NCBI GenBank assembly: GCA_964016885.1
Contig: OZ024754.1
Coordinates: 3,720,001 to 3,784,000 of the forward strand
DNA length: 64,000 bases
Source: Eledone cirrhosa
Taxonomy: Eukaryota
Reading direction: 5' to 3'
Positions 39,105-50,094 of the stretch are shown here, in pieces; the stretch's first letter is position 1, and each line of letters begins with the position of its first letter. Below the pieces are notes generated by a model. It saw only the letters and a program-made list of their open reading frames with translations. It ran no database searches and was not told where the DNA came from. Position numbers and translations under genes: made by a program.

Positions 39105-40657
39105 CAATATATATATAATATATAATGTATATATATATACAGATATTCATATACATATATGGGATTGTATTTATATATATATATATACATATATATATAT
39201 CGAAATAGAGAGAGAGAGAGAGAGAAGCATATGAAAGTATGATTGCTGAGAAATGCGATGCTCTTTCAGATTATTGTACATTTTAAAAAGATTAAAGTAA
39301 TAGAGAAACGGTGTATTCCAGAGTTTATACGTGTACGAACGTACGTCTTTGCGTGTCTGCGCATGTGCATTTTTGTGCATACAAATGAGTGTGCATGATT
39401 GTAAGTTTATGTGTGTGAGCGAGTATATGTTTATGCACTTATATTCAGTTCCATATGTACGTGTGTACGTCTGTAAAGTAGATAGAGAGAAGGAATGAGA
39501 AATAGAGAACCATAAAGTGAACGAGTGATATATAGAGAGAGAGATATAGAGGGAGAGAGAGAGAGAGGGGGCGATAAAATGAATGCATGAGGAAGAGTGA
39601 AACATAGATATATTGGCGAGAGTGAATTAATAGTTTTTTAAAACAGTTAATGTTTACAATTGTTTCAACCACATATACATACGCGTGCACGCACTCAGAC
39701 ACACACACATATATATATATATATATCAGCCTGTAGGTTGAAGAAAAAGAGGAAAAGAGGAAAGGGGTACTCAATCTTCGTACTCCTGGAGATGAGGGTT
39801 GCACATTTTTTCGGGGGTATGTGTTACCCATATGTAATGTCTCCCTCTATTGAGGAAAATCGATTAATTTTTAAATTGCATTTGTGATAGTATTTTACAC
39901 GTTTTTATTGTATCTAAACTTCCCCCTTTGTATTTGTCCCCTTCTTTTGTGCCCCTGTGGCTAATAAAGAAACATAACTATCTATCTATATATATATATA
40001 TTTATAAGTTAGACTTACTTAGATGTGATAGATAGATTTTTTATAGCGAAATCTGTCGAAGGACTCTCCTATGTTTTCTATTTGCTGGACAATATGTATG
40101 ACGGACACCTCTAAAAGGTTTGCATTCAAGTATTCTCTTCTTCTGCTCAGTCCTCGCCGACGCTTCTAGAATTACTTTAAGAGAATGGTGAGGAAGAGTG
40201 GGAGGTGATGGCTTCTAGTGTGTGGTTATGAAAAATGGGTGAGAGCAACGCGATTGTCGAGGCTATGTGGTCCTACTGTGATTATTCTTTTCTACAAAGG
40301 AGGAAAGAAACCGGGAGAAAGCATTTTCTACGCCCGCCAGGCGACATACTAATCTGAGGTTTTGTGCGGGAATTTTCTGTTAAATGCCCTAAAGCGAAGT
40401 CCTCTCCTATTGGGGAACTCTTCCTAGTCGACATGTTATTGTTTTATATTGTGTTCATGACTATTTTGTACAATTAGTCTCATTGTTATACCTACTATAT
40501 TTCCTCGCTTGATATCCTCCTTTACTTTATTCGATTTAAATCCCATAGTGCATTTCATCTCTTTCTGGTTTTCTCCGCAATTACTCGGGGTCATATGGGT
40601 AATAAATCAAATTATCATCATCATCATCATCGTCGTCGTCGTCGCCATCATCATTTT

Positions 40658-41046
40658 GTGGATTGGCAATATCGGTAGAGCATCAGACACTGTGCCTTGC
40701 ATCATAGGAGTTATTGCCTTTTACGTTCTGAGTTCAAATCTCGCCAGATTAACTTTGCCTTTCATCAATAAAAATAAGGCACCAGTAATGCAGTGGGGTT
40801 GATTTAATCGACTATCCCCTCCTCTCAAATTACTGGCCTTGTGCCTATACTAGAAATCATTATTATTTGGATTGGCAGTATCAGTAGAGGGTCGGACGCC
40901 ATACTTTCCAGCATAGTTACGTCCCTTTACGATCTGAGTTCAAATCCCGCTGAGGTTGACTTTGCCTTTCATCCTTACGGGGTCGATAAAATAAAGTACC
41001 AGTAATGTACTGATGAATTGCTGGCCTTGTGCCTAAAGTAGAGACA

Positions 41047-41112
<66 letters not shown>

Positions 41113-41306
41113 AGAGCAGTGAATTGGCAGTATCGGTAGAGGGTCGGACGCCTTGCTTTGACGCATAGAGTTACGGCCCTTGCCATTCTGATTTCAAATC
41201 CCGCCGAGGTTAACTATGCCTTTCATCTTTACGGGGTCGATAAAATAAAGTACCAGTAATGTACTGGGTAATGTGCTGGCTTTGTGCCAATAGTAGAAAC
41301 AATTAT
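40658..41306 (+). mobile_element. tandem trimer of Deu/Nin-like SINEs
   Basis: Copies at 40658-40866, 40868-41050 and 41119-41306, joined by (att)n. Confidence 0.85.
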
Positions 41307-41389
41307 TAATATTATTATTTTTATTATTGTTATTACTCTTTGAGTCTCAGTCATTGATGTTAGTTAACTGGAAAGTTTGTTGAGATGAA

Positions 41390-41450
<61 letters not shown>

Positions 41451-41639
41451 TCTGTTGTCGGTTCTTTCCGTACGTTACACAGCTTTGTTCTGTTTCCAGA
41501 CATTTATTCAACCCATCTTATTAAAATGTCTAACTGTCTTGTAGATACTCTAATCAGTGTCTTCTTGAGCTGGTTAGTTTATCTCTACCTACAACACTTG
41601 GAGGCTAAATCTATGTTTCTTTATCAATACACACACACA

Positions 41640-41690
<51 letters not shown>

Positions 41691-41793
41691 GCACAAACAC
41701 ACGCTCTCTATTACTCTCTCACACACTCACATATATATTTATATATATATTCATATCTATCTATATACATCTATCTACCTCACGATCTCTCTT

Positions 41794-41942
<149 letters not shown>

Positions 41943-42049
41943 CATCTATCTATATACATCTATCTACGTCACAATCTCTCTTTCTCTCTCTCTCTCACAC
42001 ACTCACACACACACACACGCATATATATATATATGTATGTATATTTATG

Positions 42050-42105
<56 letters not shown>

Positions 42106-42155
42106 TATATTCATTCAAAATATTTAAAAAAATAGAACTTCATTGTGATGAAGTA

Positions 42156-42222
42156 TATTTTATTATACATATTTCAGAGGTACTGAGCTAACTTCAACAG
42201 TACGTCCTCATCAGATAAAATA
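42156..42222 (-). ncRNA. minimal type I hammerhead ribozyme motif
   Basis: Reverse complement of 42227-42293. Confidence 0.8.
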
Positions 42223-42226
42223 ATAA

Positions 42227-42293
42227 TATTTTATCTGATGAGGACGTACTGTTGAAGTTAGCTCAGTACCTCTGAAATATGTATAATAAAATA
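42227..42293 (+). ncRNA. minimal type I hammerhead ribozyme motif
   Basis: tattttat-CTGATGA-ggacgtactg...cagtacctct-GAAA-tatgta-TA-ataaaata. Confidence 0.8.
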
Positions 42294-42517
42294 TACTTCA
42301 TCACAATGAAGTTCTATTTTTGTTAATATTTTGAATGAATATTAATAACTCCGGAAAACGATAACAGTTGAGTGCTTCCAATCTATTGTAAAACTAATTC
42401 TTTGATTTATTCATCGAAACTTGTTTAACCTTTAAATATATATAGGTATATATGTATATATATATGTATATACAATGATATTCAATAAATGGAAACTATA
42501 TTTATAAAACCCTATTA

Positions 42518-42576
42518 ATTCTATTATATATATTTCAAGGGTACCAAAACTTTGGTACGCTCTTATCAGATAAAAT
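42518..42576 (-). ncRNA. decayed hammerhead motif (family B, G8A)
   Basis: attttat-CTGATAA-gagcgtaccaaa gt tttggtaccctt-GAAA-tatata-TA-atagaat. Confidence 0.6.
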
Positions 42577-42749
42577 ACAAAGTTTGTTTTATAAATGTTG
42601 ACATAACCAAGAAAAGATACCTGAACGGTTCAAGTTTTTCTTGGATATATATATATATGTATAGGTATCTATCTATCTATATATATATATGTATAGGTAT
42701 CTATCTATATATATAGATAGGTATCTATCTATATATATATAGGTATCTA

Positions 42750-42794
<45 letters not shown>

Positions 42795-42807
42795 ATATAT
42801 ATCTATA

Positions 42808-42934
<127 letters not shown>

Positions 42935-43822
42935 ATATACACACATATATACTGAGAAAAAAGAGGGAGAGAGAACTATGTATACCTACCTTCCTTTACA
43001 TACATACATGCATACATACATACATACATACATACATACATACATACATACATACATACATACATACATACATACATACATACATACATACATACATACA
43101 TACATACATACATGCATGCATACAGACATACATATCTCCATGCATACATATATGCCCGAAGCTTTGCAATGGTATGGAAGAATGCCATTGTACGCATTCG
43201 AAGATAGAAAAATGGATCAAGATTATGAAAATGAACTACTAGCAATGTAGACCTTTTCTTCGTTCGGCAAAAGACATATGAAGCATAATTTTTTTACTCT
43301 ATTTCCTGGACCACCTACTTTACATAGACGATGGATATTTGTGGTGAAGGCTTCATTCGTTGCTACGAATGTTGCTGTCTTTGATATTAACTGGCAGTCA
43401 CACGATGTATATAGAGAGGAATGTATAAAATGGATTATTATAAAGCTATTTATTTCGAAAGAAGCAATTATTTTACATTTTTGGTAAAGGTGTGGATTTT
43501 CGCATAATTAGACGCTGATGATAGTCTCCAAATCCGTTTGATCTAAGAAGTGATAACTTATCAAATATATATATATATATATATGTATGTAGGTTTATAT
43601 ATTTATATATATACATATATATATATATATATAGGTGTATATATATATATATTTATATATCTGTGTGTATATTTATATATATTTAATATATATTTATTTA
43701 TATATGTATATATATATATATTTATATATGTATATATATATATAGAGAGAGAGAGATATATAGGTACGTATGCCTGAATATATAGATAGGTACCTATATA
43801 AGTATGTGTGTGTTTGTGTATA

Positions 43823-43854
<32 letters not shown>

Positions 43855-44344
43855 CCTATACCTATATATATATATATATATATATATTATACACAGTGTG
43901 TTTATTACTGCATACATTATTATATATATATCTATATATATATATAAATTTATATATATATAGAAATGTAAATATATATATATATATACATATACATATA
44001 CATATATATATATGCAAATATGTATGTGTATAAACAGATATTCAAATATACACACATACGAACTTATACCTACATACATATGTAATTACAGAATTACATT
44101 TATATATGAGTCCACTGTGCTATATCAATGCGATTACCAAAAGCTGATACTTATTTAGGTTATATGGTACATATACATAAATGCATTGAGGGTTTAACAC
44201 GTACAGACATATATAGATACAAGCGCGCGCACACACACACACACATGCATACACATGAAAATATCCAAACCTATAGTAAAACACTCGCGTATGCTACTTA
44301 TACAGGCCTGTGTTTCCAATTTCTTAACACATACATAAACACAT

Positions 44345-44503
<159 letters not shown>

Positions 44504-44557
44504 TGTGTGTATATATACAGAGTTGAAAATTGCAAACTTGACTGTCACCACAGAATA

Positions 44558-44596
44558 TGAACCTGAAGATTGCGAAAGTATGAAAGTACTTGTTCA
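44558..44596 (+). ncRNA. 39-nt minimal hammerhead ribozyme motif
   Basis: tgaac-CTGAAGA-ttgc gaaa gtat-GAAA-gtac-TT-gttca; palindromic stem III. Confidence 0.75.
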
Positions 44597-44907
44597 ATTA
44601 ACATTTAACATTTAATATTCTAACATAATATTTATTATAATTTTAAAGGATTGTGAATAAAACGAGTAAATCAAACAAAGTTGGAATTCCTTTTATTAAT
44701 ATAATATTCTATACACAATCATACACAACCGTGTATATTTATTTATATATTCATATATATATATATATATTAGAAAGTGAGTTATTTTTTACAAAAATGA
44801 AAAATGACCGAGGTGTCCTACACGAGTGAAAGTATAAGGAAAACAGATGAAATCGAAAATGCAACTGGAGTATTTTTTTTTTTTAAATATATATATTTAT
44901 TTGGTAC

Positions 44908-44943
44908 CTTTACCGGTTTCGCAGTTCTTCTGCTTTTCAAAAG
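44908..44943 (-). ncRNA. hammerhead motif with compensated U3-A8 core
   Basis: ctt-TTGAAAA-gcag aagaa ctgc-GAAA-ccgg-TA-aag. Confidence 0.65.
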
Positions 44944-45025
44944 TAGAGTTGAGATGGAGGGTCTGTGGTTCTTCTCACATCTGTGAGAATGTGAGAAAAA
45001 ACACAGACCCTCCATCTCAACTCTA

Positions 45026-45061
45026 CTTTTGAAAAGCAGAAGAACTGCGAAACTGGTAAAG
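45026..45061 (+). ncRNA. hammerhead motif with compensated U3-A8 core
   Basis: ctt-TTGAAAA-gcag aagaa ctgc-GAAA-ctgg-TA-aag. Confidence 0.65.
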
Positions 45062-45149
45062 GAACCAAATAATTATATATATAAAAAAAAAAAGGACTCC
45101 AGTTGCATTTTCGATTTCATTTTTTTCTTTATATATATATATGTGTGTG

Positions 45150-45358
45150 TACAAAAAAGGTAAACAGAAATAACAACACAATCGGTACAGTATATGGAAA
45201 GTATATATTAGGTTAACGCTTGATATAGAAGGAAGAGGGTCTTAACGTTTCAGACGCTATTCCTTCATCAGAAGAAAGAATGAGAAATACAATGGAATTG
45301 GATTTGGAAAAAATGTCTTTAGATAAAAATAATAGGTCCATTCATGTTGATATCTCTT
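45150..45358 (-). mobile_element. PLE 3' end: ORF C-terminus, HHR and tail (family F)
   Basis: KRYQHEWTYYFYLKTFFPN resembles the R...E..WI..LKT..P.GLN end of PLE GIY-YIG domains and runs into the HHR; second copy at 61378-61588. Confidence 0.65.
45240..45275 (-). ncRNA. 36-nt minimal hammerhead ribozyme motif
   Basis: tctt-CTGATGA-aggaatagcgtct-GAAA-cg-TT-aaga. Confidence 0.7.
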
Positions 45359-45374
45359 GTGTGTGTGTGGGTGG

Positions 45375-45454
<80 letters not shown>

Positions 45455-45716
45455 ATAAATACATACATACACGTTTTGATATATACATGAATATTGAGAG
45501 ACACAAACAAAGTTTAGATTGCCATGCACCAGTGTATAATATGGTGAGCATGAATATCTTCGTCATATGTTTGTATATGAGCACTCATCTCTCAACACAT
45601 AGATACAAACACACGCAGATACACGCGTGCGCACACGCACACATACACTCGTGCATCCACACATCTCTATATTTATATATCTTATATATATATGTGTCTG
45701 TATATATATATACAAG

Positions 45717-45752
<36 letters not shown>

Positions 45753-45851
45753 CTATATATATATATATATATATATATACTATATATATATATATATTTA
45801 TATATCTCATATATATATATATTTTTTTTTATATATATATATATTCATATG

Positions 45852-45896
<45 letters not shown>

Positions 45897-47865
45897 ATAT
45901 TTGAGTGTATATATATATATTTATATATTTATAAATATTTATATATATATATCTTGCTATATTGTATACATATATGTACATACATGTATGTATCTATATG
46001 TATATAATGTATGTATATGACATAAACACACACACACACATATATATACAGATATATAATTTGTATATGTATATATGAATGTATGTATGTATAATTATGT
46101 CTGTGTGTCTGTGTGTGTATCCTCACACTCACCATGATGATCTATTGTGAAAAGAATTGAAGCTGGGGATTTTAATATATATAATATTAGATTAAGCTTT
46201 AGCAATGCTCGGCCAAGTTAATCAGGAAGATTGAAACTCATCGTCGGCAGATATAGGAAAATGAATTATAAACATTCTTCATATAAATAACCTTACTAGC
46301 TGCTCCTGCTTATATATTTGAAGTTCACACGTACTCCATTGATATTTTTTCCCTGCTTCAATATTTCTTAGAAAATAATTTGTTCCAATAAATCATTTAT
46401 TAGTTGAAAAGGAAGGAAAAAATGGAAGACATTTTAGGATTTCTTGAGAATTTTCATAAGAAAATGGATTAGAGGCAATATATTGAATAATTAATTTCCC
46501 TCATAATATTCATCATGTGTAAAAGGGAAATATTTCTTTCTTTTGACTCTACGATAGGATTTCAGTAGAATAAAATTAAAGTGACTTTTGCGGCATTCGT
46601 GACTTTTTAAAGAGCGTCGTGACATGAATTGCTCTACTTAAAATGAATACTAAGGTCATTAAAACCCATTTGATGACCCAACGTCCGAAACGACTCGTTC
46701 TTCTTTGAATGTTTATATTTTTCTAAAAAAAAATTAAATCAAATATTTATGTAAACTTTTGTTAATCTTACTCCAAACGTTTGTTATGTAATACAAGGTT
46801 TAGTCATTCTCTTAAACATGTCAAATTTCTTGATTATTTTTCAAAATGATTTCAAAAGTCTTGGGCAGTGTCTGAGAAATATGGCAACGAAATGGTTAAT
46901 AGAACGATTCATATTTGATAATTTATTGTGCAAGTCTCTTAGTTTAAGATAGGTTGGTCACACTTGTTAGGATTTGTTCATAAGTCTGTTAGATTACAGC
47001 TGACAAAAGGTTGAACAATCACAGTAATAACAACAAACAGAACATCAACTACCAAGACTTAATGCAAGCCGAGATAGTTTTCATTAGAATGTCTCTTGTG
47101 TTTTATATTAATTTTTCTCTTACATATAATGAGACATTCTGAGAATTTGAATGGACTCGAGTGTTCGTTTAATATCCACGGTTATTTGTGGTGTACTTGG
47201 AAACAAATTAGCTTTATTACGAAGAATCTGAAACCTTACTTAAGCTTAGATCTTATGATTTCATATAAAATACTCTTACTTCCTTGCTCTTTGTTTTTCT
47301 TTTCTGGATTTAGCAATCTCGTTTTCTTAGCTGAGAACGAGACGCGAGGGAGAAGAGAGCCTCTCAGTGTTGCTTCCCTTTGTTAACAGAAAAAAACAAT
47401 AGTGTTTAATGCTATATGTTACACTCCCGTCACCGAATTATCTAGAGCTGCAAAAATAGTATTACTTTGGCGGTAATTTACTTGGCCGTGTTTCTTCAGG
47501 TATTTGTTGTATCTTCTAGACTTCCAAATCGAATTAATGAACCATGCCATCTTGTTGCAGCTGCTTTTTGATGTCATTTTCTGGCTAGGACACCGGATAT
47601 TTAATTTCATTTACTGACCGCAAAAGCTTGTCTTCATAACATGAGACTGAATGCAAATTTTGCCAATAGTCATCCTAGTGGTGGAAGATGTTCCGCCATG
47701 TCTCTCTAATGGTATCAATGCCATGTCTTATAATATGAGGCTTGTCTTTCTCTAATATACAGAGTCCTCTTCATATTTATTCCATTGGTTGAGCACTCTC
47801 TCTGAATATATTACTTACTCTGACTGTTTGACCGTGTTATATTGCGTATTAATATTACCGGCTAA

Positions 47866-48185
47866 TCATCATCATCCTCATCCTCGTTTAACTTCTTTTT
47901 ATTCCAGGATGGCATGGGTTAGACGAGTTATCCTGTTGTGAGCAATGCCACGTCAGGTGACCATGTCTTGCACACACAAAACTGATTTGGGCTTGGTTTT
48001 TACAGCTGGATGCCCTTCCCTACCGGCAACCTCATTTACAGTCAGCACTAGGTGCATGTTGTCGTGGCCCCTACACGATCACTTTACAGTGAGTACTGGG
48101 TGCTTTATATAGTGGCGCCTACACGATCACTTTACAGTGAGTACTGGGTGCTTTATGTCGTGACACCCACACAACGACTTTACAT
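47866..48185 (-). mobile_element. second octopus-type SINE-like repeat with (gat)n tail and internal ~47-bp tandem duplication
   Basis: (cat)n-cgtttaac...gcatgggttagacg, ggatgcccttccct and two copies of ctacacgatcactttacagtgagtactgggtgcttta; family recognised from memory only. Confidence 0.6.
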
Positions 48186-48565
48186 ACCATTTAACAATTC
48201 TTAATACTAAAACTTGGCACTCCACCGCTTTCATGATTTTAATAGAATTTTCTGGCTGTTTCCATAATAGTTTTTTTTACACTTCTTTAATCGGTATAAT
48301 TCAGAACCATATATCAAGTCTTTTATTTACCAATATTTAAGAAGGCAAATCGTTTCACTCTACTAGAATAACTGAAATTCTGAAATGTTATTCACCTTTT
48401 ATTGGTCCAGAGGTAGAATGATATGCCAATCAAATCATTCATAAATATTTATCCAAAAGAATTTGAAAACAAATCTGTTGTAAATTCACCCTCTTCCCCA
48501 ACAAAAATCTATATCTTATGTTTGATTACAGACCTCCATATATATATATATATATATATATATAA

Positions 48566-48834
<269 letters not shown>

Positions 48835-49866
48835 TATATATAAACCTGTCGAAAGTGGAGAATAGTAAGGGATTCGGTGTCCGAATGACACTCAGCGCTA
48901 AAGTCTATATGATTGCCCATGTGTTTACACGTTGCTGACGTGATATATGGCGTGTTCTTCTTCACCCCAGCTATGTACAAACATAATTTCGTCCAGAGAA
49001 ACTGGAAGAGAAAAGGAGAAAGAAGGTTAGAGAAAGAATCTGTCACCATAAATGACCGGTATCTTATATATTGAGTTCGAAAAATTAAGGATAATGTTGA
49101 CCTTTTAAGTATTTGAACTCAGAATACTGAGAACTGGGACAAATACTGCAAAGTATTTCAAATGCTGCTCGATCGTAGCAGACAATTCACCTGGTATCTC
49201 TTAAAATAAAGCAGAGTTTATAACTAAAGATGATTTTAGTGTCAGAGATTTGTCTAAATCACGAATGTGAACGGACATTTTTGTTCGTCGTATAAATCGA
49301 AAGGTCTCAAGTAAACACATGTCTCCCATATAAGACTTCCACTTTGACTGCGTCTTGTCATAAATTCAAAAAAACAAAAATAACAAAAACAACAACAGAT
49401 AAAATACCATCAAAATGGTGAAACTGAGATTGGCATGACGATGGCAATGATATCGGTTTAGTAAACATCAACGTCTATCCATCAAATTTGAAGGAGAACT
49501 AAACAGCAACGAAATGAGATTTGGTTTGGTTTCCTAAACTCAAATATATCCTATACAAATAGAGTTAGATGTTTCTTTTGTATGACTTCAATATAATTAT
49601 GTTCCATATGAAAGTAACATGAAAACGGATAAATAATAATACATTATTTTTATGTATTTTTAGCTTCAAAATAGACAATTTTTATATGTATACTTTTATG
49701 CATGTTCTGTGGGAAATCTGTTTCCATTATTCTGAAGTGTTACTACAGAACTGGCACCATACCAGATATTCGAAGAACTCTTTTTATTTTTTCTATTACA
49801 ATTTCTATTTTTGTTTAGTTTTTGTTGTTTCAATATTTTATTTTATTTTATTATTATTTATTCTAC

Positions 49867-50094
49867 CTTTTCTTTTCTGCAGCAGTCACTTTCATCCTGG
49901 CTTCAATGATTTCTGAAACATCAGTAGAAACGATTTTTGTGTAGGTGACTCTGATTGTCCGCTCACAGCAGGCTGCAAATGCATACTTTACAGAGATGTG
50001 TAATAGCAAGCCTATCGGCTTGTACTGTGTATGCCGGAAGCAAACTACACTCGAGAGACTCACTTCCGGTTTGTGGAACGAGGCCATTTTAAAA
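49867..50094 (-). other. candidate host exon or promoter-like unique segment
   Basis: Minus-strand acceptor-like ttttttttttgtcag, then aaaATGG, an open frame MASFHKPEV...AAEKK and a possible AG/gtagaa donor; also two CCGGAAG motifs; no recognisable homology. Confidence 0.25.

Follow-up and report, generated by a model that had tools for sequence, protein, structure and literature searches.

Inverted 3' ends of a Neptune-like Penelope retrotransposon carrying minimal hammerhead motifs with a U3-A8 core pair

Described relatives and the parent element

Hammerheads with a U3-A8 pair have been described in the Cercyon Penelope-like elements of Schistosoma mansoni, with about 1,300 heterogeneous matches (Cervera and De la Pena 2014, PMC4209133), and the passages on Cercyon in that study report pairs on opposite strands at distances of 100-700 bp, a dependence on dimers and a low activity in vitro. 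Natural U3-A8 covariants of C3-G8 were also found in several of the hammerheads surveyed by Perreault et al. (2011, PMC3088659), who cite earlier work for the in vitro activity of U3-A8. That U3-A8 occurs as a natural covariation, as an earlier reading of this locus from sequence alone had stated, agrees with both papers (PMC3088659, PMC4209133). The covariation seen here is the same change from C3-G8 to U3-A8 as in that general survey, whose passages on it draw no tie to Penelope pLTRs (PMC3088659). In Craig et al. (2021, PMC8557442), a CX2-5CxxC linker is given as the mark of Neptune and Nematis, and the function of Penelope hammerheads is called unclear in the passage concerned. For the Anolis element PAc (Poseidon), the sections on the hammerhead and tail report that hammerhead mutants had no effect on insertion, that no RNA reads ended at the cut, and that the tail is the stretch from one internal RT start site to the other (Frangieh et al. 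2024, PMC11167929). The U3-A8 core itself is already published, and the family described here is a further case of a known kind of element. Its usefulness lies in being a young, intact and very high-copy family for testing U3-A8, and the gains are evidence across lineages that the 3-8 pair is under selection and, possibly, a way of reading in vivo cleavage from sequence alone.

Compared with the Cercyon description (PMC4209133), this family shares the U3-A8 pair, the pLTR location, the mostly single or opposite-strand copies, and a palindromic helix III implying dimers. The traits given there for metazoan PLE minimal hammerheads, a palindromic 15.2-16.2/loop 3 and a G10.1-C11.1 pair, are present here. 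Helix II is 4 bp here versus 7-8 bp in Cercyon, and the extra base between A9 and G10.1, a trait of the consensus shown in PMC4209133 and not a catalytic requirement, is absent. The present family comprises about 12,500 matches of low heterogeneity with intact young ORFs, in contrast to the roughly 1,300 heterogeneous Cercyon matches (PMC4209133). As in the PAc passages of PMC11167929, the tail is bounded by two internal RT start sites and the main template appears to be uncleaved RNA. The PAc hammerhead is C3-G8, overlaps the ORF start and gave no in vivo cut ends; in the present family the motif is part of the UTR, and the cut shows an enrichment of genomic 5' ends.

Two full-length copies, L075 and L078, consist of a hammerhead, ORF1 (~409 aa), ORF2 (775 aa) and a second hammerhead, the hammerheads lying in both direct pLTRs, ~4.7 kb apart. 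ORF2 matches RVT_1 in Pfam, just under the curated cut-off, together with a C-terminal GIY-YIG, and its translation holds a CX4CX2C linker ahead of the endonuclease; a protein search returned many near-identical open frames of 775 aa, and ORF1 had no Pfam match. Traits of EN+ Penelope elements are present, including pLTRs, an inverted 5'-truncated copy and a tail at one end. The linker and the (TA)n targeting point to a Neptune/Nematis-type element. RT with C-terminal GIY-YIG, linker, pLTRs, inverted 5'-truncated copy, one-end tail and microsatellite targeting are all features of Neptune/Nematis EN+ elements as PMC8557442 outlines them, compared with which the tail is ~69 nt here versus a typical 30-40 nt and the ORF1 and RT-EN reading frames share an overlap that contains an in-frame U UUU UUA heptamer.

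This overlap places ORF1 and RT-EN in the -1 frame relation (L075:1353-4817, slippery site 2513), and it occurs in 5 of 6 two-ORF elements checked (L075, L154, L155, L159, L163 and L156, the last being a near match). A programmed -1 frameshift is likely because ORF2 has no Met ahead of its DKG motif. Frameshifted ORF1s are mentioned in a figure legend of PMC8557442, where the clade is not evident, and a literature search on an ORF1/RT-EN frameshift in such elements returned no paper matching all features sought. Close ORF2 relatives (P0012, P0038, P0042, P0058) come from records labeled as assemblies of bacterial symbionts of molluscs and are probably host contamination.

The inverted pair and its hammerhead motifs

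The window, that is, the whole stretch of 64,000 nucleotides analyzed, has a GC content of ~30%, and its positions 44770-45129 form an inverted repeat within (TA)n-rich DNA (Table 1). Read outward from the center, each arm is CTT-TTGAAAA-GCAG AAGAA CTGC-GAAA-C(C/T)GG-TA-AAG. The plus arm comprises stem I CTT (45026-28), the core TTGAAAA (45029-35), stem II GCAG/CTGC (45036-48), GAAA (45049-52), CTGG, TA (45057-58) and AAG (45059-61); the minus arm has U3 at 44940 and the CCGG variant. The arms at 44908-45061 are minimal type I hammerheads with U3-A8, and they belong to two head-to-head 5'-truncated pLTRs from one Neptune-like Penelope retrotransposon insertion in (TA)n. Aligned to full-length L075, the left arm starts 43 nt upstream of U3 and reaches the distal 3' end, which is the distal RT start site. 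The family's copies in the window are most likely inert fossils.

Table 1. Features of the inverted pair, in window positions
Feature	Positions	Strand	Basis
Left arm: 5'-truncated 3' end (pLTR) of Penelope-like element, with tail	44770..44983	-	Alignment to L075
Tail, ~69 nt, left arm only, adjoining (TA)n	44770..44838	-	Two discrete family 3' ends
Minimal type I hammerhead with U3-A8 and the palindromic hexamer ACCGGU in helix III; predicted cut 44911/44910	44908..44943	-	
Inversion junction between the two 5'-truncated arms, approximate	44984..44988	.	Mapped arm ends
Right arm: tail-less 5'-truncated pLTR copy that stops at the proximal RT start site, adjoining (TA)n	44989..45129	+	
Minimal type I hammerhead, U3-A8; hexamer ACUGGU; predicted cut 45058/45059	45026..45061	+	

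Using a descriptor with stem II of at least 4 bp, stem I of at least 3 bp and positions 3 and 8 free, 0.375 matches were obtained by chance per locally shuffled 64-kb window, with U3-A8 in 0 of 40 shuffles. Rfam, run over 40000-50000, gave no hammerhead family among 96 matches, and the library models therefore miss the U3-A8 motif. The sequence-only reading had anticipated that a CUGANGA-based search would overlook it, and reading the window bears out the sequence and coordinates it gave for both arms, as well as the change from C3-G8 to U3-A8 and the UUGAAAA core on each.

Both arms contain UUGAAAA, GAAA and GUA, with a Watson-Crick 3-8 pair and an NUH site in place; all core positions besides 3-8 are intact, and the 3-8 pair is complementary. 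Helix II has 4 bp with a pairing probability of 0.82-0.95. Helix I has only 3-4 bp and is weak; its pairing probability is ~0.3 for the young subfamily and 0 for the left arm of the window. Helix III has a 2-nt loop that is unable to close in a monomer, and two motifs could pair through a palindromic duplex of 6 bp, with self-duplex energies of -8.3 kcal/mol for ACCGGU and -3.2 kcal/mol for the right-arm ACUGGU. ACCGGU is found at the variable site in 114 of 139 aligned arms, and the right-arm hexamer, one change off this palindrome, is likely a product of CpG decay. The 10.1-11.1 pair is G-C in 111 of the 139 and G-U in an older subfamily, and A9 directly adjoins G10.1 with no extra base between them.

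Cleavage by hammerhead dimers has reportedly been described by Lunse et al. An assay of the motif as a tandem dimer had been proposed; in the window the arms are inverted, and a read-through RNA of both would form one long hairpin of -198 kcal/mol. Since the arms are mutually antisense, no cis dimer can form, and a dimer would have to come from two RNAs or from one full-length or tandem transcript through its two direct pLTRs.

The ends of the family were mapped in 116 arms, drawn from similarity searches and not a random sample: measured from the predicted cut, the 3' end lies ~79 nt on in 41 arms and ~148 nt on in 51, mostly against (TA)n, and 37 start at 35-49 nt upstream of U3. A 5'-end hot spot ~36-46 nt upstream of U3 is seen family-wide (44983 and 44989 in the window) and is possibly the pLTR transcription start; its reading as a splice acceptor was rejected, many copies retaining CAG. 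Among the first 100 matches listed of two subfamilies, 25 and 13 head-to-head pairs (50 and 26 matches) were counted, often spaced 94-115 nt, and each list of 100 held 2 direct neighbors within 6 kb, all more than 3 kb apart. A non-LTR retrozyme reading was set aside, as no head-to-tail array of short non-coding hammerhead units was found for the family and direct neighbors are scarce. Elsewhere, tandem arrays of ~420-520 nt units with C3-G8 hammerheads resemble non-LTR retrozymes (G000:C2:78934837-78936979, G000:C4:90058337-90059854, L078:6819-7760). The window also holds at least four further hammerhead-like repeat families, nearly all C3-G8 and two of them also as inverted pairs, at 2191+, 10946+, 11884+, 35882-/36005+, 42214-/42235+, 42569-, 45271-, 51107+ and 61074+.

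Consensus and covariation of the 3-8 pair

The genome searched comprises 3.0 Gb in 1796 contigs. A DNA similarity search yielded 1415 candidates, of which 40 were scored, and subfamily patterns with positions 3, 7 and 8 free, counting each inverted pair twice, yielded 4342 matches in the window's subfamily, 1799 in an older one and 6405 in a young one, summing to 12,546. U3-A8 is present in 4268 of the 4342, with position 3 altered in 42, position 8 in 32 and both in 0; it is present in 98 of the first 100 matches listed of the older 1799 and in all of the first 100 listed of the young 6405. U3-A8 is the family consensus, and the 4268 of 4342 settle the check on genomic copies proposed for the locus earlier.

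A looser pattern revealed one C3-G8 copy, L043. It was considered as a C3-G8 sister subfamily and rejected, its nearest neighbors having U3 in 35/35 arms and A8 in 33/35, and it is read as a lone double mutant; by chance, ~0.09 double mutants are expected in the stricter set of 4342. No C3-G8 ancestor subfamily was found, L043 being the only such copy and lying among U3-A8 relatives, and no U3-G8 or C3-A8 subfamily was seen across the three subfamilies. Four contig runs, of unrecorded kind and with thin cover in two, displayed no difference at positions 3 or 8 among the rows listed.

Within the family, single variants occur at ~1% per site, as neutral decay predicts, and within-family data alone therefore show no selection; the three subfamilies differ by too few master-level changes for conservation of the core to be shown. 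Across lineages, 80 metagenome loci related to ORF2 were searched with the descriptor left free at positions 3 and 8. On the sense strand, 30 of 31 distinct matches are Watson-Crick (22 C-G, 4 U-A, 2 A-U and 2 G-C), and on the antisense strand 3 of 10. A quick RT tree was built from L075 and 24 loci, one row each, leaving out L155, L191 and L228, whose matches lie inside the RT match and include the sole non-Watson-Crick sense match. Among these 25 Penelope lineages all four Watson-Crick forms of the 3-8 pair are represented. U-A requires 5 changes on the quick tree, at least 4 of them forced by well-supported branches; the U-A lineages are not clustered, and L229 is a long branch.

Such cross-lineage covariation in the sequences supports selection on the 3-8 pair in Penelope hammerheads. 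The earlier suggestion of selection holds on this ground, and not from the two arms or from within-family data; occurrence on both arms adds no evidence, the arms being copies of one master and not independent. The five U3-A8 cores (L164, L171, L204, L216, L075) are all UUGAAAA, with A at position 7, where C3-G8 cores mostly have U/A. Well-formed Penelope hammerheads with A3-U8 and G3-C8 cores were also encountered (L207:1969, L214:117).

Junctions at the predicted cut and competing explanations

The arms are probably best explained as the inverted 3' ends from one Neptune-like Penelope insertion, each with the family's minimal hammerhead, in which U3-A8 likely takes the place of C3-G8 while a slow self-cleavage, likely aided by a dimer or a protein, is retained. 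Full-length tandem copies would be transcribed from ~43 nt upstream of U3, and RT would start either ~79 nt or ~148 nt beyond the cut, usually on uncleaved RNA. A minor RNA fraction would be cut after GUA when two ribozymes build helix III from their ACCGGU hexamers, and run-off on the cut RNA would produce copies beginning at the cut. Most copies span the motif, having derived from uncleaved RNA, and cleavage is therefore unnecessary for most insertions.

Given an RNA cut after GUA and cDNA run-off, copies are expected to begin at AAGG. Exactly this start, preceded by non-family bases, was found in 80 matches; the 30 cut-site loci inspected include 3 internal tandem duplications, which are not fresh 5' ends, 1 internal deletion and a few that are complex or share one insertion. 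A perfect 14-nt TA flank is present in 14/80 at the cut versus 4/30 at -9, 1/35 at -16 and 1/44 at ~+37 (binomial p ~3e-5). Junctions to (TA)6 within ~28 nt were listed in 100 + 65 rows and counted by eye, using only rows without extra bases; more than half of the rows were set aside as unclean or duplicate. The clean junctions comprise 17 loci at 0/+1, 10 at -2, 8 at +2 and 2 at -1, the -2 class sharing its TA with the target and the 0/+1 class being ambiguous by one base. Upstream, 32 clean junctions are scattered between -5 and -27, no site having more than 6, and 17 against a rate of 6 gives p ~2e-4. Both tests are post hoc, prompted by an earlier hint, with sampling that excluded +4 to +36. 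Copies beginning at the cut make up less than 1% of the family.

Cleavage in vivo may have left the excess at the cut site as its footprint in the genome. Whether the 5' junctions of truncated copies preserve such cleavage by the U3-A8 minimal hammerhead as a fossil record is, in our judgment, finely balanced; on that reading, cleaved 5'-OH RNA was reverse transcribed and inserted in the germ line, such that sequence alone would score ribozyme activity family by family. No published report of such a junction pile-up was found in a literature search lacking most subscription journals. If the peak holds, the question of hammerhead function becomes testable in any genome with enough copies.

A rather unlikely alternative is that the motif is a real hammerhead descendant, inactive or nearly so here and kept as a structure, promoter or RT-recognition element, the junction peak reflecting RT stalling at stem I/helix III combined with A/TA microhomology. 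The weak stem I, the origin of most copies from uncleaved RNA and the low in vitro activity described for metazoan minimal hammerheads in PMC4209133 are in its favor, and a small cluster of 6 junctions at -12/-13, beside stem II, indicates that structure may matter. Microhomology, however, would have to contend with the 5-7 junctions at each of the other A-runs of the motif versus 37 at the cut-site run, and inactivity with a core that is otherwise intact and complementary at 3-8. The single (TA)n junction of a second hammerhead family also falls at its predicted cut (1/1), an anecdotal count.

The origin of the U3-A8 pair could also be ascribed to AT-biased drift in one master, with U3-A8 hitchhiking unselected. 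C3 to U and G8 to A are each GC-to-AT transitions, the window having ~30% GC, and the C3-G8 state is represented by L043 alone, with no ancestral subfamily found; against this, the cross-lineage tree set is entirely Watson-Crick, G-C and A-U included, and no U3-G8 or C3-A8 subfamily was seen, such that drift is largely refuted and very improbable. Scarcely credible is a functional host hairpin, either an miRNA/endo-siRNA precursor or a cis-acting ribozyme pair: the long hairpin is near-perfect and weak Rfam miRNA matches exist, but these lie under the gathering score (best 71 bits versus 100) and are hairpin artefacts, the inverted layout is an insertion by-product at a large share of family copies, and the opposite orientation precludes a cis ribozyme pair.

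At G000:C2:327097787, C3:99356404, C15:20763763, C20:28598796 and C28:67342196, the inverted insertions have their fold-back point precisely at the palindrome of helix III, which suggests cDNA self-priming there.
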